DNA from: Escherichia coli | GTDB taxonomy: Bacteria > Pseudomonadota > Gammaproteobacteria > Enterobacterales > Enterobacteriaceae | Reading direction: 5' to 3' (one strand) | DNA: 64,000 bases | Assembly: GCF_029227855.1 (NCBI RefSeq) | Contig: NZ_CP074356.1 | Shown here: positions 5,911-48,709 of the stretch, piece after piece | Position numbering within the stretch: the stretch's first letter is position 1 | Layout: each line of letters opens with the position of its first letter | Position numbers and translations under genes: made by a program | The notes under the pieces: model-generated | Told to the model about the DNA's origin: nothing | Databases searched by the model: none | The model's input: only the letters and a program-made list of their open reading frames with translations

Positions 5911-7050
5911 ATGAGCGCGGGAAGCCCAAAATTCACCGTTCGCCGCATTGCGGCTTTGTCACTGGTTTCGCTATGGCTGGCAGGCTGTTCTGACACTTCA
6001 AATCCACCGGCCCCGGTCAGCTCCGTTAATGGCAATGCGCCTGCAAATACCAATTCTGGTATGTTGATTACGCCGCCGCCGAAAATGGGGACGACGTCTA
6101 CAGCTCAGCAACCGCAAATTCAGCCGGTACAGCAGCCACAAATTCAGGCAACTCAACAACCGCAAATCCAGCCGGTGCAGCCAGTAGCTCAGCAGCCGGT
6201 ACAGATGGAAAACGGACGCATCGTCTATAACCGTCAGTATGGGAACATTCCGAAAGGCAGTTATAGCGGCAGTACCTATACCGTGAAAAAAGGCGACACA
6301 CTTTTCTATATCGCCTGGATTACTGGCAACGATTTCCGTGACCTTGCTCAGCGCAACAATATTCAGGCACCATACGCGCTGAACGTTGGTCAGACCTTGC
6401 AGGTGGGTAATGCTTCCGGTACGCCAATCACTGGCGGAAATGCCATTACCCAGGCCGACGCAGCAGAGCAAGGAGTTGTGATCAAGCCTGCACAAAATTC
6501 CACCGTTGCTGTTGCGTCGCAACCGACAATTACGTATTCTGAGTCTTCGGGTGAACAGAGTGCTAACAAAATGTTGCCGAACAACAAGCCAACTGCGACC
6601 ACGGTCACAGCGCCTGTAACGGTACCAACAGCAAGCACAACCGAGCCGACTGTCAGCAGTACATCAACCAGTACGCCTATCTCCACCTGGCGCTGGCCGA
6701 CTGAGGGCAAAGTGATCGAAACCTTTGGCGCTTCTGAGGGGGGCAACAAGGGGATTGATATCGCAGGCAGCAAAGGACAGGCAATTATCGCGACCGCAGA
6801 TGGCCGCGTTGTTTATGCCGGTAACGCGCTGCGCGGCTACGGTAATCTGATTATCATCAAACATAATGATGATTACCTGAGTGCCTACGCCCATAACGAC
6901 ACAATGCTGGTCCGGGAACAACAAGAAGTGAAGGCGGGGCAAAAAATAGCAACCATGGGTAGCACCGGAACCAGTTCAACACGCTTGCATTTTGAAATTC
7001 GTTACAAGGGGAAATCCGTAAACCCGCTGCGTTATTTGCCGCAGCGATAA
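5911..7050 (+). CDS. nlpD: Murein hydrolase activator lipoprotein NlpD (LysM plus LytM/M23 domains)
   Basis: Track ORF 379 aa; lipobox LAGCS; Q/P-rich repeat; C-terminal M23-like domain; lies directly upstream of rpoS. Confidence 0.95.
6106..6203 (+). repeat. Imperfect tandem ~27-bp coding repeats inside nlpD, encoding QQPQIQPVQ-type units
   Basis: Repeated cagcaaccgcaaattcagccggtacag-like units visible in the sequence. Confidence 0.7.
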
Positions 7051-7112
7051 ATCGGCGGAACCAGGCTTTTGCTTGAATGTTCCGTCAAGGGATCACGGGT
7101 AGGAGCCACCTT

Positions 7113-8154: not shown

Positions 8155-8865
8155 TGTGCACAGAAAACCCCCAGCTAGGCTGGGGGTTCCGGAAAGCTTT
8201 CAGCTTTAAGCCAGTTATTAAAACCCCTTTTGATTTGTTAAAACACCTTGCGGTCTGGCAACTGCAAGTGTCAAACAAGAAATCAAAAGGGGGTCCCAAT
8301 GGGGAACGAAAAGAGCTTAGCGCACACCCGATGGAACTGTAAATATCACATAGTTTTTGCGCCAAAATACCGAAGACAGGTGTTCTACAGAGAGAAGCGT
8401 AGAGCAATAGGCAGTATTTTGAGAAAGCTGTGTGAGTGGAAAAGTGTACGGATTCTGGAAGCTGAATGCTGTGCAGATCATATCCATATGCTTGTGGAGA
8501 TCCCGCCCAAAATGAGCGTATCCGGCTTTATGGGATATCTGAAAGGGAAAAGCAGTCTGATGCTTTACGAGCAGTTTGGTGATTTGAAATTCAAATACAG
8601 GAACAGGGAGTTCTGGTGCAGAGGGTACTACGTCGATACGGTGGGTAAGAACACGGCGAAGATACAGGATTACATAAAGCACCAGCTTGAAGAGGATAAA
8701 ATGGGAGAGCAGTTATCGATTCCCTATCCGGGCAGCCCGTTTACGGGCCGTAAGTAACGAAGTTGGATGCAAATGTCAGATCGTGTGCGCCTGTTAGGGC
8801 GCGGCTGGTAAGAGAGCCTTATAGGCGCATTTGAAAAACCTCCGGCTATGCCGGAGGATATTTAT
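8155..8865 (+). mobile_element. IS200-family insertion sequence (IS200/IS605 family); boundaries approximate
   Basis: Intact 152-aa Y1 HUH transposase with the HxH motif; hairpin at the left end (8166..8188); imperfect stem-loop around the RBS (8226..8290); hairpin at the right end (8839..8857); overall size about 0.7 kb as expected for IS200. Confidence 0.8.
8299..8757 (+). CDS. tnpA: IS200/IS605-family transposase TnpA (Y1 HUH)
   Basis: Track ORF 8248..8757 trimmed to the ATG preceded by an AAAAGGGGG Shine-Dalgarno; product 152 aa, MGNEKSLAHTRWNCKYHIVFAPKYRR...HIHMLVEIPPK, typical IS200 TnpA. Confidence 0.9.
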   Translation: MGNEKSLAHTRWNCKYHIVFAPKYRRQVFYREKRRAIGSILRKLCEWKSVRILEAECCADHIHMLVEIPPKMSVSGFMGYLKGKSSLMLYEQFGDLKFKYRNREFWCRGYYVDTVGKNTAKIQDYIKHQLEEDKMGEQLSIPYPGSPFTGRK

Positions 8866-18611: not shown

Positions 18612-21173
18612 TTACACCAGACTCTTCAAGCGATAAATCCACTCCAGCGCCTGACGCGGAGTCAGTGAATCCGGGTCGAGGTTTTCCAGTGCCTCGACCG
18701 CAGGCGAAGTTTCTTCTGGTACGGACAGCAAAGACATCTGCGTGCCATCTACCTGCGTCGCGGCGGCATTCGGCGAAATGCTCTCCAGCTCACGCAGTTT
18801 CTGCCGCGCGCGTTTGATCACCTCTTTTGGCACGCCCGCAAGGGCTGCAACCGCCAGGCCGTAGCTTTTGCTCGCCGCGCCATCCTGCACGCTGTGCATA
18901 AAGGCAATGGTGTCGCCGTGCTCCAGTGCATCGAGATGCACGTTGGCGACGCCTTCCATTTTCTCCGGTAACTGGGTCAGCTCGAAATAGTGGGTGGCAA
19001 ACAACGTCAACGCTTTAATCTTATTCGCCAGATTTTCCGCGCACGCCCACGCCAGCGACAGACCATCGTAAGTGGACGTCCCGCGCCCAATCTCATCCAT
19101 CAGTACCAGACTGTACTCGGTGGCGTTATGTAAAATATTGGCGGTTTCGGTCATTTCCACCATAAAGGTTGAACGCCCGGATGCCAGATCATCCGCTGCC
19201 CCTACGCGGGTAAAGATGCGATCGATAGGTCCAATCTCGACTTTTTGTGCCGGTACATAGCTGCCGATGTAGGCCATCAGCGCAATCAGTGCGGTCTGGC
19301 GCATATAGGTACTTTTACCGCCCATATTCGGACCGGTAATGATCAACATGCGACGCTGCGGCGACAGGTTCAGCGGGTTGGCGATAAACGGCTCATTCAG
19401 CACCTGTTCAACCACCGGATGGCGGCCTTCGGTGATGCGAATACCCGGTTTATCAATAAAGGTCGGGCAGGTGTAGTTCAGGGTATAGGCCCGTTCCGCC
19501 AGGTTCACCAGCACGTCGAGTTCCGCCAGTGCGCTCGCGCTCTGTTGCAACGCTTCCAGATGCGGCAACAGCAGGTCGAACAGCTCTTCATAAAGCTGTT
19601 TTTCCAGTGCCAGTGCTTTGCCTTTTGAAGTGAGAACTTTGTCTTCGTACTCTTTTAGCTCTGGAATAATGTAGCGCTCGGCGTTTTTCAGCGTCTGGCG
19701 ACGCATGTAATTGATGGGTGCCAGATGGCTTTGTCCACGGCTGATCTGAATGTAATAACCATGAACCGCGTTAAAGCCGACTTTCAGGGTGTCCAGGCCA
19801 GTACGTTCACGCTCGCGGACTTCCAGACGCTCCAGATAATCGGTCGCGCCGTCAGCCAGCGCGCGCCACTCATCCAGCTCTTCGTTATAGCCCGGTGCGA
19901 TAACACCACCGTCGCGTACCAGCACCGGCGGTGTGTCGATGATTGCTCGCTCCAGCAGATCGCGCAGCTCGGCAAACTCGCCCATTTTTTCACGCAGCGC
20001 CTGTACCGGAGCGCTATCGACATTTTCTAACTGCGCGCGCAGCTCCGGCAGTTGCTGGAAAGCGTGACGCATACGGGCCAGATCGCGTGGGCGAGCAGTT
20101 CGTAAAGCCAGACGCGCCAGAATACGTTCCAGGTCGCCGACCTGACGCAGTACCGGCTGCAGCTCGGCGGTGAAATCCTGCAATGCGCCAATAGTTTGCT
20201 GGCGCTCAAGCAAGACGCGGGTATCGCGCACTGGCATATGCAGCCAGCGTTTCAGCATACGGCTGCCCATCGGCGTGACGGTGCAGTCGAGCACAGAAGC
20301 CAGCGTATTTTCCGCACCACCCGCCAGGTTCTGGGTGATTTCCAGATTACGACGCGTCGCGGCATCCATAATGATGCTGTCCTGCTCACGTTCCATGGTG
20401 ATGGAACGAATATGCGGCAGAGTCGTACGTTGGGTATCTTTCGCATACTGCAACAGACAACCGGCAGCACAAAGTCCGCGCGGCGCGTTCTCGACGCCAA
20501 AACCGACCAGATCGCGGGTGCCAAATTGCAGATTCAACTGCTGGCGCGCGGTGTCGATTTCAAACTCCCACAGCGGGCGACGGCGCAGGCCGCGACGGCC
20601 TTCAATTAACGACATTTCAGCAAAATCTTCTGCATACAGCAGTTCCGCAGGATTAGTGCGTTGCAGTTCTGCCGCCATCGTTTCCCGGTCAGCCGGTTCG
20701 CTCAGGCGAAAACGACCGGAGCTGATATCCAGCGTCGCGTAGCCGAAACCTTTGCTGTCCTGCCAGATAGCCGCCAGCAGGTTGTCCTGACGCTCCTGCA
20801 ACAGGGCTTCATCGCTGATGGTGCCTGGCGTAACGATACGCACAACTTTGCGCTCAACCGGACCTTTGCTGGTCGCCGGATCGCCAATTTGTTCGCAGAT
20901 GGCAACGGACTCGCCCTGATTCACCAGTTTGGCGAGGTAGTTTTCCACCGCATGGTAGGGAATCCCCGCCATCGGGATCGGCTCTCCCGCCGAAGCACCG
21001 CGTTTGGTCAGTGAAATATCCAGCAGTTGCGATGCGCGTTTTGCGTCGTCATAAAACAGTTCATAAAAATCACCCATCCGGTAAAACAGCAGGATCTCGG
21101 GATGCTGGGCTTTCAGCTTGAGATATTGCTGCATCATGGGCGTATGGGCATCGAAATTTTCTATTGCACTCAT
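18612..21173 (-). CDS. mutS: DNA mismatch repair protein MutS
   Basis: Track ORF 853 aa; Walker [10 protein letters not shown]; MutS family. Confidence 0.97.
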
Positions 21174-21419
21174 GGGGTTATGTCCGGTTCCCTGATATTA
21201 AATGGGGTGTGATGGTTTTTATTTTCGTTGTAATCACATAAGGCGCACATGATACCGGAGTTAATCATTTCAGGGGAAGAAGCGAACGGCGAGTTCTTGA
21301 GGGTGATTCCGGGAAAGATGCTGTTTTGCAGCTTTTGCGTGATGATTATGAAGCAAGTACGCAAAATTGCGTCGGTTGAATAAACCTCCTCCTTCAGAGC
21401 CATAGTCCCCTTTCAAATT

Positions 21420-21442
21420 AAGTTGTAATATAAATACACCTT
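21420..21442 (+). promoter_or_regulatory. Candidate NsrR operator upstream of ygbA
   Basis: AAGTTGTAATATAAATACACCTT resembles the NsrR inverted repeat (AAGATGYATTT-N-AAATRCATCTT); ends 17 nt upstream of the ygbA ATG. Confidence 0.45.
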
Positions 21443-21459
21443 AAGAGTATGGAGGCAGC

Positions 21460-21804
21460 ATGTCCGGCAAGCGTATCTCTCGTGAAAAACTGACGATTAA
21501 AAAAATGATCGATCTTTATCAAGCGAAATGCCCGCAGGCGTCAGCGGAGCCGGAGCATTACGACGCGCTGTTTGCCTACGCGCAAAAGCGGCTGGATAAA
21601 TGTGTGTTCGGCGAAGAGAAACCAGCCTGTAAGCAGTGTCCGGTGCACTGTTACCAGCCTGCAAAGCGTGAAGAGATGAAACAGATTATGCGTTGGGCCG
21701 GGCCGCGAATGCTGTGGCGTCATCCGATCTTAACCGTGCGTCATCTCATCGATGACAAGCGTCCGGTGCCGGAGTTGCCAGAAAAATATCGTCCAAAGAA
21801 ATAA
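21460..21804 (+). CDS. ygbA: Cysteine-rich conserved protein YgbA
   Basis: Track ORF 114 aa; conserved neighbour of mutS. Confidence 0.85.
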   Translation: MSGKRISREKLTIKKMIDLYQAKCPQASAEPEHYDALFAYAQKRLDKCVFGEEKPACKQCPVHCYQPAKREEMKQIMRWAGPRMLWRHPILTVRHLIDDKRPVPELPEKYRPKK

Positions 21805-21807
21805 ATC

Positions 21808-21832
21808 TGCCGGAGAGCCATACTCTCCGGCA
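21808..21832. terminator. Bidirectional terminator hairpin between ygbA and the convergent TOBE gene
   Basis: 10-bp perfect stem tgccggagag/ctctccggca with a 5-nt loop; A/T-rich flanks on both sides. Confidence 0.6.
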
Positions 21833-21842
21833 AATAAGGCGT

Positions 21843-22271
21843 TTACGCTTTGGTGGCAATCAGGATGGCTGATGCTTTGATCAATGCAATAACGCGCGAG
21901 CCAGTGGTGAGTTTCATTTCATCCTGACTTTCATTTGTTACCACTGCCACAATTTCAAAACCCGCATCCGTTTTGATATGGACAGTGGCGTTCACTGCGC
22001 CTTCGGTGATTGTCGACACGCTGCCAGCAAACTGGTTGCGAGCAGAGAATTTCAGTCCACAGTCTTCCGTTGCCAGCGTTACCCACGGGGCTTTAATCAG
22101 GGCAATCGCTTCTTTCCCTTTCGCCAGACCCAGAGCCTGCTGGCTGCTGTGAGTCACAATTGCCACCAGCTTTGCACCACCTGCCAGCGTCAGTTCTACT
22201 TCGTCATTCACCGCGCCCATTGCTACTGCGCTAACTGTTCCGGTTAATTGATTTCTTGCTGAAACTGCCAT
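21843..22271 (-). CDS. Tandem TOBE (Mop-like) domain protein, putative molybdate/oxyanion-binding molbindin
   Basis: Track ORF 21843..22310; start set to the ATG preceded by an AAAGGAGG Shine-Dalgarno (142 aa); two internal repeats beginning SARNQLTGTVSAV and SARNQFAGSVSTI. Confidence 0.7.
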   Translation of the reverse strand: MAVSARNQLTGTVSAVAMGAVNDEVELTLAGGAKLVAIVTHSSQQALGLAKGKEAIALIKAPWVTLATEDCGLKFSARNQFAGSVSTITEGAVNATVHIKTDAGFEIVAVVTNESQDEMKLTTGSRVIALIKASAILIATKA

Positions 22272-22315: not shown

Positions 22316-24394
22316 TTAAATCAATGCCGATTTATCAATTCCCAGTCGCTTCATCCGTGACAGCAGAGTCGTGCGTTTCAGCCCCAGACGTTGCGCAGCG
22401 CCTTTAGGCCCGGCAACCACGCCGTTTGTTTCTTTCAGCACGCGAACAATCAACTGATATTCATCTTCGCCCTCCTGGGCGACAACCGTTGCGGCAGGCG
22501 GCGTTTCTGGTTCCGGTAAAACAATATCTGGCAGTGACAGCTGCAGCACGTTGCCGCGTGTTAGCAATACCGCGCGCTCGATGACGTTTTCCAGTTCGCG
22601 CACGTTACCCGGCCACTCCATGTTGCTCAAGGTGCGCAACGTCTCGGCAGGAATGCTGTCGATATTGCGCCCCAGACGACGGGCAATTTTGAAGGTAAAG
22701 GCTTTCGCCAGCAGCGGAATATCTTCCGGACGCTCGCGCAGGGGCGGCAGGTGGATCGGGAATACGTTCAGGCGGTAATAGAGATCGCTACGGAACTCTC
22801 GGTCGGCGACCATTTTTTTCAGATCGCGGTTAGTCGCGGCAATTAAACGTACGTCCGTCTGAATGATTTTGTTGCTGCCGAGGCGTTCAAACTCCTGTTC
22901 CTGTAATACACGCAGCAACTTCGGCTGTAACTCCAGTGGCATATCGCCCACTTCGTCGAGGAACAGGGAGCTTTTATCCGCCAGTTCAAAACGACCAATG
23001 CGCTGGGCGCTGGCACCGGTAAAAGCCCCACGCTCATGACCAAACAGATCGCTCTCCAGCAATCCGGCAGGCATCGCCGCGCAGTTCATTTTTACCATGC
23101 GGCGATTATTACGCCCACTGAGATTATGGATAGCACGGGCAATCAGCTCTTTACCTGTACCAGTTTCACCGAGAATCAGCACGGTACTGTCGCTTTGCGC
23201 CACCATTTCAACTTGTTTAAGTACGCTGTACATGGCTTCGCTGCGGCCAATAATCTCGCCAAATTCACTATCAACATTGTTGAGCTGCTCGGTCAGGGCG
23301 AGGTTTTCATCAACCAGCCGTTCTTTCAGACGATGGATTTCCTGATAGGCGAGGGCGTTATCGACAGCGATTGCCACACGTTCGGCAATCTGGCGCAGTA
23401 AATTCAGATTGGTAGTGGTAAACACTTTCTCTTCGCATTGCGCCAGTTTCAGCACGCCCAGCATGGTGTCGCCAGACATCAGCGGTAACAGGCACAAGGT
23501 TTGAATCTGGTTGCCCCAGGTGTCGAACAACATGCGTTCATAGGGGGCTAAATCGTCCCGCTCGTGGAGATTAATCAGCAGCATCTCTTTGCTTTTGAAC
23601 ACGCGTTCGGTGAGGGTTCCGGCTTCATCGACTTCGCTCTGTTCGTGGGCGGGATGCTGTTTATCAAGATAGTGAGTGGAGTAGATGTTGAGTTTGTTTT
23701 TACGGTGGCTGCGTAAGACGATGCTGATATCGTCAATGTCGAAGTAGTAATGGATTTCTTTGGCGACTTCGCTGACCAGTTCGTCCATATCCAGGCGGGA
23801 AAGCACCGCGTTGGTGATGGCGACCAGGATACGGAAGTTATCGCGCTCCCGGCATAACAACTCATAGTCGACATTATTGACGACGCGGCTCTGGATTTGT
23901 TCGGTGACGACAGAAACGATCTGCGTAAATGTTTGCAGACGATTGAACTCTTTTTCGCTCCAGGGGCGATCGTCATAACGAATAAATTCACAGCCACCAA
24001 AAATATGCCCTTCCGCCGCCAGTGGCATCAGGCAATAGTGACCAAATTTGGGGTATAGCCCACCTGCGGCCAGCTGCGGCCAGGTTTCACAAAATTCTTC
24101 GTAACTGCAATGCAGCGTATCAGGGCGCGACAAAATGCTGCGTACCGGACCGTGTGCCAGAACAGTTTCGTCTTCATATTTAATGGGGGTGTCTTTTTCA
24201 CGCGATGCGTAATAAGACGCACGTTGAGTCTGCGCTTGCCACAACACAATAGCCGCGTTGTCGGCGAGCGCAGAACGCTTTACCAGTTGCGAAAGAGCCT
24301 CACACAGCGAGGCCAGATCGGGCTGCTGCAATAGTGTCCGAGTGATGTCGAACAACCCTTGTTGTCCGAGATCACTCATCGGTGTATATGACAT
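22316..24394 (-). CDS. fhlA: Formate hydrogenlyase transcriptional activator FhlA (sigma-54 enhancer-binding protein)
   Basis: Track ORF 22316..24430; start set to the ATG encoding MSYTPMSDLGQQG (692 aa); GAF domains, AAA+ sigma-54 interaction domain ([14 protein letters not shown]) and C-terminal HTH. Confidence 0.95.
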   Translation of the reverse strand: MSYTPMSDLGQQGLFDITRTLLQQPDLASLCEALSQLVKRSALADNAAIVLWQAQTQRASYYASREKDTPIKYEDETVLAHGPVRSILSRPDTLHCSYEEFCETWPQLAAGGLYPKFGHYCLMPLAAEGHIFGGCEFIRYDDRPWSEKEFNRLQTFTQIVSVVTEQIQSRVVNNVDYELLCRERDNFRILVAITNAVLSRLDMDELVSEVAKEIHYYFDIDDISIVLRSHRKNKLNIYSTHYLDKQHPAHEQSEVDEAGTLTERVFKSKEMLLINLHERDDLAPYERMLFDTWGNQIQTLCLLPLMSGDTMLGVLKLAQCEEKVFTTTNLNLLRQIAERVAIAVDNALAYQEIHRLKERLVDENLALTEQLNNVDSEFGEIIGRSEAMYSVLKQVEMVAQSDSTVLILGETGTGKELIARAIHNLSGRNNRRMVKMNCAAMPAGLLESDLFGHERGAFTGASAQRIGRFELADKSSLFLDEVGDMPLELQPKLLRVLQEQEFERLGSNKIIQTDVRLIAATNRDLKKMVADREFRSDLYYRLNVFPIHLPPLRERPEDIPLLAKAFTFKIARRLGRNIDSIPAETLRTLSNMEWPGNVRELENVIERAVLLTRGNVLQLSLPDIVLPEPETPPAATVVAQEGEDEYQLIVRVLKETNGVVAGPKGAAQRLGLKRTTLLSRMKRLGIDKSALI

Positions 24395-28157: not shown

Positions 28158-28196
28158 TGTCGATGATGTCGAAATGACACGTCGACACGGCGACGA
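28158..28196. promoter_or_regulatory. Candidate FhlA upstream activating region between the divergent hyp and hyc promoters
   Basis: Two direct TGTCGA repeats followed by an inverted TCGACA copy (tgtcgatgatgtcgaaatgacacgtcgaca); position matches the known FhlA-dependent hyc/hyp control region. Confidence 0.5.
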
Positions 28197-28244
28197 AATT
28201 CATCTTTAGCTTAAAAATCGCTTTAATAACAATAAATTAAAAGT

Positions 28245-28758: not shown

Positions 28759-28882
28759 GCTGAGGCTTTGCCCGTTTTGCAGGCGTTACGCCTGTTTGGG
28801 GATGGGCGTGTCGATGAGTGTCGAAAATGACATTTCATCGGCATGTTTTCGTCAAAAATGACAATCACCTGAGGAATGCCTG

Positions 28883-36325: not shown

Positions 36326-36637
36326 ATGCACATCATTTCGAAAGCGCCATTTGAAGAGTGTGCGCGCAAATATCCTAACGACGCTCTGGCTCTACACTCA
36401 TTGTATCGGGTTATTAAGGAAACGGATTTTTCTACACCAGAAGAAATGCGAACGGCGTTTCCTAACCTCGACAATTTTAAATATCGCAACAAATGGTACG
36501 TTCTGGATGTCGGCGGGAACAATCTTAGGGTTATTGCCTACATAAACTTTGTTAATAAGCGGTTCTTTGTGAAGCACATAACGAATCACGCAGAGTATGA
36601 CAAACTGACACGTTACTACAGAGAGAACAAAGAATGA
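36326..36637 (+). CDS. Type II toxin, HigB-like (RelE/ParE superfamily mRNA interferase)
   Basis: Track ORF 103 aa; resembles E. coli HigB (MH.I.KA...YP, FP.LDNFKY, VGGN.LRV, TH.EYD); AAGGAAG Shine-Dalgarno; stop overlaps the next ATG (ATGA). Confidence 0.8.
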   Translation: MHIISKAPFEECARKYPNDALALHSLYRVIKETDFSTPEEMRTAFPNLDNFKYRNKWYVLDVGGNNLRVIAYINFVNKRFFVKHITNHAEYDKLTRYYRENKE

Positions 36638-37053
36638 CTGCTAATGCTGCACGCGCTGTTAAAGCAACAAGAGAACTGGTCAATGCAGTCCCCTTTCTGG
36701 GAGGCAGTGACTCAGAAGATGATTATCGTGAAGCACTGGAACTGGTCGAATATTTGATTGAAGAAGATGACACCAATCCACTTATCGACTTTCTGGCGAG
36801 CCGCATTGCAGAATATGAAAACAACAACGAAAAGTTTGCAGAGTTCGACAAAGCCGTTGCAGCAATGCCGGTTGGCGTGGCGTTACTTCGTACGCTGATT
36901 GATCAACATAATTTGACCTATGCGGATTTGAAGAACGAAATCGGCTCTAAATCTCTGGTCAGTCAGATTTTGTCTGGGCAACGATCCCTGACGATATCCC
37001 ATATTAAGGCACTTTCAGCCCGATTTGGCGTTAAGCCGGAATGGTTTCTTTGA
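36634..37053 (+). CDS. Type II antitoxin, HigA-like (XRE-type HTH)
   Basis: Track ORF 139 aa; C-terminal HTH (SKSLVSQILSGQRSLTISHIKALSARFGV); same architecture as HigA; translationally coupled to the upstream toxin. Confidence 0.8.
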   Translation: MTANAARAVKATRELVNAVPFLGGSDSEDDYREALELVEYLIEEDDTNPLIDFLASRIAEYENNNEKFAEFDKAVAAMPVGVALLRTLIDQHNLTYADLKNEIGSKSLVSQILSGQRSLTISHIKALSARFGVKPEWFL

Positions 37054-44438: not shown

Positions 44439-45572
44439 CTACACCGGCAACGTTTTCAACAATCCAAACGCCTCTTTCATCCGATCCTCACTGACCACAA
44501 AGGCGCGAAGCTGGTCTGTATCGTCAACGCCGCGTGCCACCATTCCCTGATGTTCGGTACAAATCTGCCAGCGCAAATCCCGACGCTGGGTTTCGCCTGC
44601 CAGATGCAGCGGTAATTCCGGCGTTTTGATTTTCACCAGCATCGCAGGGAGTTTCAGCGGCGTGTTATTGCCGAGAAGATTTTTTGCCAGCACCATCGCG
44701 CTAAGTTGAATCGGCTGGAGGAACGGCAATACCTGACCGTTAATTTCCGCGCAATCGCCCAGCGCATAAATATCGGCATTACTGGTTTGCAGATAACTAT
44801 CGACGCAAACGCCGCGATTAATCGTCAGCCCGGCGCGTCGTGCCAGGGCGGTTTCCGGGCGCAGCCCGGTGGCGGCAATTACCGCATCCACTTCGATGCT
44901 GCGCTGGCGGTCCAGCGTTGCCAGAATGCCAGAATCCGTTTTTTCCAGCCCCTGCAACTGAGATTTCAACAGCAGATGAACGCCCATCTCCGTCAACCGA
45001 TGCTGCAAGCGGCTGCTTACTTCCGGTGGCATTAACGACGCCAGAATACTGGCAGCGTTGTCGATTAGCGTGACCGCTTTGCCTGCACGACAAAAATCCA
45101 TCGCCAGTTCGCTACCAATCAAGCCACCGCCAACAATCAACACGCGTCGGGCATCCCGCAGTTGCGTTTCACAGGCGCGATACTCTTGCTGACTATTTAA
45201 CGTCAGCATTAACTCACGCCCAGGCACTGGCGGGACAAAGGCACTGGCACCAGTTGCCAGCACCAGCTTGTCGTATTGCCACTGATTATTCTGGCTTTTC
45301 ACCACATGGGCTTCGGCATCGATATCCGTTACCCAGGTGTGCGGAAACAGGCGCAGATTAAACTTCTCGGCAAATTCACCTGCCGTCTGGCGGGTAAGGT
45401 CATCGGCACGTTGCCCCTGGCTGATAACATGGCTGAGGTCAGGTTTGTTGTACTCATCCATGCTGTCGGCGGCAATCAGGGTTAATGGAATACTGGCGTC
45501 CTGTTTGCGAATATTTTTCACCAGTTGGCGGGCGGCGAAGCCCGAACCAATGATCACAATGCCGTTGCTCAT
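44439..45572 (-). CDS. norW: NADH:flavorubredoxin reductase
   Basis: Track ORF 377 aa; FAD/NAD dinucleotide-binding motifs. Confidence 0.93.
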
Positions 45573-47008
45573 TTTGCCTCCGATGCCAGTTCGTCAAAGA
45601 CGTCTTTGCCGAGAGAGCATTCCGGGCACAGGAAGTTATCCGGGACTTCACTCCACGGCGTTCCTGGCGCAACGTCCTGCATTGGCTCGCCTTTTGCCGG
45701 ATCGTAAATCCACTGGCAGACGCTGCACTGCATCCGTGGGCCGAGGTCAGCCGTCGTGGTGGCAGAGGTTTCTTCTTTAACCACCGTATTCACCGTGCTC
45801 TGCGGCAGCGGCGCGAGCGCCCACTGACGGGCGATTTCGCGACCGTGTTCACGACATAGCTCCAGAGCGTCCTGGTCCGGTCGCCATTTGGCTTTCAGGC
45901 TAAGCGACATTTCGAAACCTGCATCCTGCAGGCGTGTGGAAAGACGATCCACCGCACCGCCGCTCCAGCCGTGAGATCCGAAAGCACTGGCGCGTTTGTT
46001 ACGGAAGCGTAAACCAGTCATCTCCTCCACCAGCCCGGCGATTTTCGGCATCATCACGTTATTCATCGTCGAAGTGCCGACCAGCACGCCTTTTGAGCGG
46101 AATACATTGGTCAGGATTTCGTTTTTATCGCTTCGGGCGACGTTGAAAATTTTCACCGCCACGCGTGGGTCGGTTTCCGCAATCCCCTGGGCAATAGCGT
46201 CAGCCATCATGCGGGTGTTATTCGACATGGTGTCGTAGAAAATGGTGATTCTGTCTTCCTGATAATCCGCCGCCCATTTCAGGTACAGCTCGACAATTTG
46301 CGTCGGGTTATCGCGCCATACCACGCCGTGAGAGGTCGCTATCATATCGACTGGTAAGTTAAAGCCCAGGATCTCGGTAATTTTCGGCGTTACCAGGCGG
46401 CTGAACGGCGTCAGGATATTGGCGTAGTAACGCTGGCACTGCTCGAAAAGCTCCGTCTGATCCACTTCATCGTTGAACAGATGCTCGTCGCAGTAGTGCT
46501 GACCGAAAGCATCGTTACTGAATAGCACCGCGTCGCCTGTCAGGTAAGTCATCATGCTGTCCGGCCAGTGCAGCATTGGCGTTTCGACAAAAATGAGCTG
46601 TTTGCCGTTGCCGATATCCAGCGTGTCGCCAGTTTTCACCACATTAAAATTCCACTCCGGATGATGGTGATGACCATTTATCGAGTCGATAGCGTTGGCA
46701 GTACAGTAAATCGGCGTATCGGGAATTTGCGCCATCAGTTCGGTCAGCGCCCCGGCGTGGTCCTCTTCTGCATGGTTAATCACGATGTAATCGATATCCG
46801 CCAGATCGATTTCATTACGCAGGTTCTGCACAAATTCGCGGCTGAATTTATGGTCAACGGTGTCGATCAGCACGTTTTTTTCTTCGCGGATGAGGTAGCT
46901 GTTGTAGCTGCTGCCGCGCAGCGTTTTATATTCTGTGCCGTGAAAATCACGCACTTCCCAGTCACGTTGACCAACCCAATGAATGTTATTTTTCACCACA
47001 ATAGACAT
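45569..47008 (-). CDS. norV: Anaerobic nitric oxide reductase flavorubredoxin
   Basis: Track ORF 479 aa; metallo-beta-lactamase-like, flavodoxin and C-terminal rubredoxin (CxxC...CPxC) domains. Confidence 0.93.
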
Positions 47009-47054
47009 AGCAACCTCAATTTATTCAGCGTGTTCTAAAAAGATGTCTTGCTAA

Positions 47055-47072
47055 TTGCAGATTGCGTGCCAG
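47055..47072 (-). promoter_or_regulatory. Sigma-54 promoter of norVW
   Basis: Reverse complement reads cTGGCACgcaatcTGCAa, with canonical -24/-12 spacing, upstream of norV. Confidence 0.8.
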
Positions 47073-47126
47073 TTTTTTATCTAATTGATTTTTATGTATA
47101 AATTAATTCATGCTCATTAATGAGTA

Positions 47127-47182
47127 GTCAAAATGACTATCAATCAAATGGTCGATATGACAATATCTATAGTCAAATTGAC
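47127..47182. promoter_or_regulatory. Three NorR enhancer sites (GT-N7-AC)
   Basis: GTCAAAATGAC (47127..47137), GTCGATATGAC (47151..47161) and GTCAAATTGAC (47172..47182) in the norR/norV intergenic region. Confidence 0.8.
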
Positions 47183-47194
47183 AGTGAGGCAAAG

Positions 47195-48709
47195 ATGAGT
47201 TTTTCCGTTGATGTGCTGGCGAATATCGCCATCGAATTGCAGCGTGGGATTGGTCATCAGGATCGTTTTCAGCGCCTGATCACCACGCTGCGTCAGGTGC
47301 TGGAGTGCGATGCGTCTGCGTTGCTACGTTACGACTCGCGGCAGTTTATTCCGCTTGCCATCGACGGGCTGGCGAAGGATGTACTTGGTAGACGCTTTGC
47401 GCTGGAAGGTCATCCACGGCTGGAAGCGATTGCCCGCGCGGGTGATGTGGTGCGCTTTCCCGCAGACAGCGAATTGCCCGATCCCTATGACGGTTTGATT
47501 CCCGGGCAGGAGAGTCTGAAGGTTCACGCCTGCGTTGGTCTGCCATTGTTTGCCGGACAAAACCTGATCGGCGCATTGACGCTCGACGGGATGCAGCCCG
47601 ATCAGTTCGATGTTTTCAGTGACGAAGAGTTACGGCTGATTGCTGCCCTGGCGGCGGGAGCGTTAAGCAATGCGTTGCTGATTGAACAACTGGAAAGTCA
47701 GAATATGCTGCCAGGCGATGCCGCGCCGTTTGAAGCGGTGAAACAGACGCAGATGATTGGCTTGTCGCCAGGCATGACGCAATTGAAAAAAGAGATTGAG
47801 ATTGTGGCGGCGTCCGATCTCAACGTCCTGATCAGCGGTGAGACGGGAACCGGTAAGGAGCTGGTGGCGAAAGCGATTCATGAAGCCTCGCCACGGGCGG
47901 TGAATCCGCTGGTCTATCTCAACTGTGCCGCACTGCCGGAAAGTGTGGCGGAAAGTGAACTGTTCGGGCATGTGAAAGGGGCGTTTACTGGCGCTATCAG
48001 TAACCGCAGCGGGAAGTTTGAAATGGCGGATAACGGCACACTGTTTCTCGATGAGATCGGCGAGTTGTCGTTGGCATTGCAGGCCAAGTTGCTGCGAGTG
48101 TTGCAGTATGGCGATATTCAGCGTGTTGGCGATGACCGCAGTTTGCGGGTCGATGTGCGCGTGCTGGCGGCGACTAACCGCGACTTACGCGAAGAGGTAC
48201 TGGCAGGGCGATTCCGCGCCGATTTGTTTCATCGCCTGAGCGTGTTCCCACTTTCGGTGCCGCCGCTGCGTGAGCGGGGCGATGATGTCATTCTGCTGGC
48301 GGGGTATTTCTGCGAGCAGTGTCGTTTGCGGCTGGGGCTCTCCCGCGTGGTATTAAGCGCCGGAGCGCGAAATTTACTGCAACACTACAGTTTTCCGGGA
48401 AACGTGCGCGAACTGGAACATGCTATTCATCGGGCGGTAGTACTGTCGAGAGCCACCCGCAGCGGCGATGAAGTGATTCTTGAGGCGCAACATTTTGCTT
48501 TTCCTGAGGTGACGTTGCCGCCGCCAGAAGCAGCGGCGGTGCCCGTTGTTAAGCAAAATCTGCGTGAAGCGACAGAAGCGTTCCAGCGTGAAACCATTCG
48601 CCAGGCACTGGCACAAAATCATCACAACTGGGCTGCCTGCGCGCGAATGCTGGAAACTGACGTCGCCAACCTGCATCGGCTGGCGAAACGTCTGGGATTG
48701 AAGGATTAA
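47195..48709 (+). CDS. norR: Anaerobic nitric oxide reductase transcriptional regulator NorR (sigma-54 enhancer-binding protein)
   Basis: Track ORF 47120..48709; start set to the ATG encoding [18 protein letters not shown] (504 aa), downstream of the NorR sites; GAF, AAA+ ([14 protein letters not shown]) and HTH domains. Confidence 0.93.

Follow-up and report, generated by a model that had tools for sequence, protein, structure and literature searches.

Directly upstream of ygbA in Escherichia coli lies a 23-bp imperfect inverted repeat, and the question raised by this locus is whether the repeat is the operator through which ygbA responds to nitric oxide, and why one of its halves is so much weaker than the other. 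The regulator concerned is NsrR, a Rrf2-family iron-sulfur repressor whose cluster is nitrosylated by nitric oxide, upon which the protein is released from DNA. The DNA analysed here is a single stretch of 64,000 nucleotides, hereafter designated as the window, and the features on which the argument turns are collected in Table 1.

Table 1. Coordinates of the ygbA operator, its putative promoter elements and the flanking genes in the window
Feature	Position	Strand	Remarks
NsrR operator	21420..21442	.	11-1-11 imperfect inverted repeat AAGTTGTAATA-T-AAATACACCTT; best matrix match in the window
Left half-site	21420..21430	+	AAGTTGTAATA; the weaker half
Right half-site	21432..21442	-	reverse complement AAGGTGTATTT
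Putative -35 of the ygbA promoter	21403..21408	+	TAGTCC; weak, weakly conserved; 17-bp spacer to the -10
Putative -10 hexamer of the ygbA promoter	21426..21431	+	TAATAT; site positions 7-12, inside the left half-site
Predicted transcription start	21438..21439	+	within the right half-site, 7-8 nt beyond the -10; from geometry only
Shine-Dalgarno of ygbA	21451..21455	+	GGAGG, by direct reading; purine-rich block at equal distance kept in orthologues
ygbA CDS	21460..21804	+	114 aa; Pfam PF11756 YgbA_NO, E=4e-41; regulated gene
mutS	18612..21173	-	RefSeq annotation
fhlA	22316..24394	-	RefSeq annotation

The ygbA site and its published record

Direct reading of the window gave AAGTTGTAATATAAATACACCTT for bases 21420..21442, confirming to the letter the sequence that an earlier, sequence-only reading had placed directly upstream of ygbA, whose start codon begins at 21460. 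The site falls within the 286-bp spacer between mutS and ygbA, and a gap of 17 nt separates its end from the ygbA ATG. The window is chromosomal DNA of E. coli, and over the 1.3 kb surrounding the site it is 100% identical to E. coli strain JNEC-KY178. The ygbA operator region was found in 5420 of the 5426 complete E. coli genomes, and nsrR, a gene located outside the window, in 5425 of them at an identity of at least 95%.

Membership of ygbA in the NsrR regulon, which had been noted together with the sequence, is documented by PMC5320621, where the gene is described as known to be NsrR-regulated, as well as by expression data from Salmonella Typhimurium, in which ygbA mRNA was 31.8-fold higher in an nsrR mutant (PMC2884951). 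According to the original communication recorded in PMC1274295, YjeB/NsrR represses hmp, ytfE, and ygbA via a common inverted repeat. E. coli ygbA is separately reported to be one of the genes with the strongest induction by nitric oxide derived from nitrate. As for binding, PMC5320621 relates that NsrR was found at the ygbA promoter of K-12 by ChIP-chip, and that CFT073 ChIP-seq revealed no NsrR peak at ygbA, a result regarded by its authors as probably a false negative. Table 4 of the same paper gives AAGGTGCATTTATATTACAACTT as the CFT073 ygbA NsrR site, with a PatSer ln P of -16.65, the threshold being -14.28. The reverse complement of that sequence occupies the same locus, position, and 23-bp register as the repeat in the window and differs from it at 1 of 23 bases, with G instead of A at 21436, while the ygbA site of K-12 MG1655 (Bodenmiller & Spiro 2006, Partridge et al. 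2009, cited in PMC5320621) differs at 2 of 23 (T/A at site position 4 and C/T at 20). The proposal that the repeat is probably the ygbA operator thus agrees with a published site one base away, and also with the matrix scan and the 80 orthologous loci described below. Earlier publications already cover the NsrR operator of ygbA together with its regulator and its response to nitric oxide, and the site is an ordinary regulatory site; NsrR binding and repression are taken here from that literature.

The ytfE, hcp, and hmp operators, which form the core of the NsrR regulon, share the same 11-1-11 repeat, AAGATGCATTT-n-AAATGCATCTT, near the start codon, and for these genes as for ygbA, repression is relieved by nitric oxide. 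The distance upstream of the start codon is 15-27 nt for the hcp sites and 33-45 nt for the ytfE sites, to be compared with that of ygbA given above. The highest score belongs to the ytfE site, whose palindrome is perfect; that of ygbA lacks this symmetry, since TAATAT or TATTAT replaces CATTTA in its left half.

Matrix scores, conservation and strain variation

A symmetric 23-bp log-odds matrix was trained on the CFT073 sites having a ChIP-seq peak (PMC5320621, Table 4), a set from which ygbA is absent because it had no peak in that experiment. Scanning with an NsrR position-weight matrix, the check suggested when the site was first noticed, ranked the operator first among the 63,978 positions of the window, with a score of 21.7 bits, or 22.5 bits once the hycB site present in the same window was left out of the matrix. 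This score falls inside the range of 13-32 bits spanned by the training sites and corresponds to a per-position P of 1-2e-8, with 0.0007-0.0014 matches expected per 64 kb and, by extrapolation, about 0.1 per 5-Mb genome. With ygbA-free matrices, the ln P of the operator was -17.1 to -18.4, and its comparison with the published cut-off of -14.28 is only approximate because the thresholds come from different matrices. Palindromy (8/11 symmetric pairs) was also considered as evidence and was rejected, since the window contains 98 23-mers with 8/11 or more.

Both parts of the original description, a right half near consensus and a left half matching partially, could be put into figures. The right half-site reached 14.25-14.6 bits of a possible 16.35-bit maximum, agreed with the half-site consensus AAGATGCATTT at 9/11 positions, and was the top single half-site among ~128,000 positions on both window strands when scanned with an 11-bp half-site matrix. 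The left half-site scored 7.72 bits, with a training median of 10.3, and agreed with AAGATGCATTT at 7/11 positions; its departures from consensus include site positions 9 and 11, both within the putative -10 hexamer.

The second-best matrix match in the window is the hycB site (28825..28847, AAATGACATTTCATCGGCATGTT, 14.3-17.1 bits), located 35 nt before the hycB ATG. This site belongs to the same motif class as that of ygbA, and its letters are identical to the published CFT073 NsrR ChIP-seq hycB site; unlike the ygbA operator, it lies between hycA and hycB. Expression of hycB falls under nitrate (fold change 0.01) and does not rise, so that simple derepression does not describe hycB. On the minus strand of the hypA-hycA divergent spacer, a single, strong NsrR half-site was also observed (28196..28206, AAGATGAATTT, 13.4 bits), hypA being a reported NsrR ChIP target in K-12 and CFT073. 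The same window carries norW-norV and the divergent norR (44439..48709), which constitute the other E. coli system that responds to nitric oxide, and the weak, AT-rich NsrR-matrix matches of 10-12 bits found in the norV-norR spacer (47052..47104) are probably compositional.

Scanning one genome per species yielded 80 ygbA orthologue loci in Enterobacterales, including Escherichia, Citrobacter, Salmonella, Enterobacter, Klebsiella, Raoultella, Kluyvera, Leclercia, Lelliottia, Hafnia, Rahnella, and other genera. The ygbA operator is conserved in position across Enterobacterales: the top matrix match in the 300 nt upstream of ygbA is located 12-22 nt before the start codon in 79/80 loci, the exception being Hafnia, where the best upstream match is found 41 nt before it. 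These upstream matches have a median of 20.2 bits, as compared with a median best score of 0.5 (95th percentile 7.3, maximum 15.2) in 278-nt control segments taken from the remainder of these 80 loci, where no match exceeds that maximum. An ungapped, site-anchored profile revealed a sharp 23-bp conserved island, in which A1, A2, G6, T7, A8, A11, T12, T16, C18, A19, T22, and T23 vary little or not at all and the conserved right half reads AAATGCAnCTT (site positions 13-23). Information is ~0 bits at positions -14 to -3 and everywhere upstream of -20, as scanned to -60. Since the 81 compared sequences share descent, the conservation argument rests on these unconserved flanks, which serve as an internal control.

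Strains of E. coli differ from one another in the operator at three site positions, 4 (T/A), 17 (A/G), and 20 (C/T), corresponding to 21423, 21436, and 21439 in the window. The predicted scores of the alleles are 21.7 bits for the window (AAGTTGTAATATAAATACACCTT), 22.4 for CFT073 (AAGTTGTAATATAAATGCACCTT), 22.6 for K-12 (AAGATGTAATATAAATACATCTT), and 23.3 for EC02 (AAGATGTAATATAAATGCATCTT), and each variant base is also seen elsewhere among known NsrR sites. Since the flanks vary too, a search with 40 nt recovered just 2578/5426 genomes; the exact 40-nt context of the window was nevertheless present in 1297 genomes, so that the allele is a common one rather than a private mutation.

Putative promoter overlap and competing explanations

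Several of the invariant positions depart from what is seen at NsrR sites. All 81 sequences have T7, A8, and T12, and 80/81 have A11, giving TAnnAT; the hexamer at site positions 7-12 is TATTAT (53), TAATAT (8), TAGAAT (7), TAAAAT (7), or a close variant of these, and every variant agrees with TATAAT at 4-5 of 6 positions. In contrast, of 16 known NsrR sites 14 have T at position 11, and just 1 has T at the central position 12. The TAnnAT invariants are thus apparently not imposed by NsrR, and they match the requirement of a sigma-70 -10 hexamer. Upstream of the operator, conservation is limited to positions -17 to -15, which read (T/C)(T/A)G, with G in 74/81 sequences, and mean identity to TTGACA peaks at the corresponding -35 offset (2.81 vs about 1.4 elsewhere).

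Based on these sequence comparisons, we infer that the ygbA promoter is composed of TAGTCC, a 17-bp spacer, and TAATAT, with a predicted ygbA leader of about 22 nt from the geometry of the putative -10. The left half-site probably doubles as the -10 hexamer, and this dual use would account for its weakness as an NsrR half-site. A sigma-70 consensus scan of 21100..21900 found no promoter, and in a relaxed identity scan TAGTCC-17-TAATAT reached only 7/12 in the window, tied with other candidates; what singles it out is cross-species conservation only. An RNA hairpin formed by the repeat was considered and dropped, since the predicted start falls within the right half and the two arms would not be co-transcribed.

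We estimate at about 0.92 the probability that 21420..21442 is the operator by which an NsrR homodimer represses ygbA, with the proposed occlusion of the -10 hexamer. Without nitric oxide, holo-NsrR would occupy the 11-1-11 inverted repeat, and since the repeat covers both the putative -10 and the predicted start (about 21438), bound NsrR would keep RNA polymerase from the promoter. Upon nitrosylation of its cluster by nitric oxide, NsrR would come off the DNA and ygbA would be transcribed.

The poor -35 TAGTCC and the consensus scan that found no promoter are also what would be expected if NsrR acted at this operator on a ygbA promoter located further upstream, as a roadblock to elongation or promoter escape. 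Such an arrangement is unlikely, as there is no conservation among genera upstream of the -35-like TTG, with information of ~0 from -60 to -20, and as TAnnAT inside the site is invariant though NsrR sites do not require it. We consider it highly improbable that the conserved block is the ygbA core promoter only (-10 and discriminator), its likeness to NsrR sites being coincidental and NsrR control taking place elsewhere or indirectly. This would be in line with the -10-like hexamer being among the most invariant positions and with the CFT073 ChIP-seq result at ygbA, but the best-matching and strongly conserved right half sits downstream of the -10, where a sigma-70 promoter does not require a sequence of this kind. 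The chance expectation for the whole site in the window, about 0.001, the ceiling of 15.2 bits for any other match in the 80 loci, and the NsrR ChIP-chip binding reported in K-12 all argue against it as well.

The explanation to which we give the least credence makes the palindrome the operator of another regulator (FNR, NarL/NarP, or IscR) responding to nitrate, nitrite, or anaerobiosis. These regulators also act in the anaerobic nitrate cultures in which ygbA is induced, yet the NsrR matrix gives the sequence 22 bits, and the nsrR mutation alone derepresses ygbA in Salmonella (PMC2884951). FNR and NarL pattern scans gave no overlap with the site either: within the mutS-ygbA spacer, the FNR pattern TTGATNNNNATCAA (TTGAT-N4-ATCAA, up to 3 mismatches) matched only at 21224 and 21339, with no match in 21420..21442, and no exact NarL heptamer was found in this spacer.

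YgbA, neighbouring features and standing of the finding

The small protein YgbA carries a C-x9-C-x2-C-x3-C motif (DKCVFGEEKPACKQCPVHCY) and one further Cys, a pattern that suggests a metal or iron-sulfur site. The earlier remark that its function is still unknown holds within the literature searched, which included no ygbA-titled paper, and sequence comparison found no solved YgbA structure. Between ygbA and fhlA, RefSeq annotates on the minus strand a gene with two TOBE domains (21843..22271) that has no K-12 annotation, and its product is Mop-like and a candidate molybdate binder. The stretch including this gene is fully covered in only 1887/5420 E. coli genomes, and in the strains compared that carry it, YgbA ends in ...RPKK instead of ...RPKKPHE. 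A 14-pair hairpin (21805..21835) starts directly after the ygbA stop, between the convergent ygbA and TOBE genes; its T-run occurs on the minus strand only, so that it looks like the terminator of the TOBE gene.

The mutS-ygbA spacer contains two further features. RefSeq annotates a 44-aa "hypothetical protein" on the plus strand (21249..21383) that has no Pfam match; its region carries a 1-nt deletion in CFT073, where no annotation is found, and is unconserved outside Escherichia, and this ORF is probably not a gene. At 21339..21352, some 90 nt upstream of where ygbA transcription is predicted to start, GTGATGATTATGAA fits the FNR consensus with 2 mismatches.

Mobile elements and an inserted gene pair were observed elsewhere in the window. 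An IS1 element (6360..7057) separates the nlpD stop (6273) from the rpoS start (7113), a position that we take to be inside the rpoS mRNA leader and that could presumably alter RpoS expression, and an IS200 copy (8299..8757) is located downstream of rpoS. An insertion between hycI and ascB (36326..37053) holds a HigB-family toxin gene together with an antitoxin-like gene of the helix-turn-helix type.

The proposed dual use of the left half is a small refinement of a published operator, and one that curated databases may already record. Taking it together with the polymorphism, a tentative and rather doubtful reading can be proposed, in which the left half of a dual-use operator is fixed as a -10 hexamer, so that NsrR would rely mostly on the right half for anchoring, as a natural case of the proposed sufficiency of a single half-site, and in which the variable positions 4, 17, and 20 could set lineage-specific basal levels of ygbA. 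The real question at this locus is what YgbA does, on which the operator does not bear. The outcome is a modest one: it confirms the annotation, quantifies the earlier call, offers a probable explanation for the weak left half, and illustrates both the conservation of the ygbA operator across Enterobacterales and its polymorphism within E. coli.
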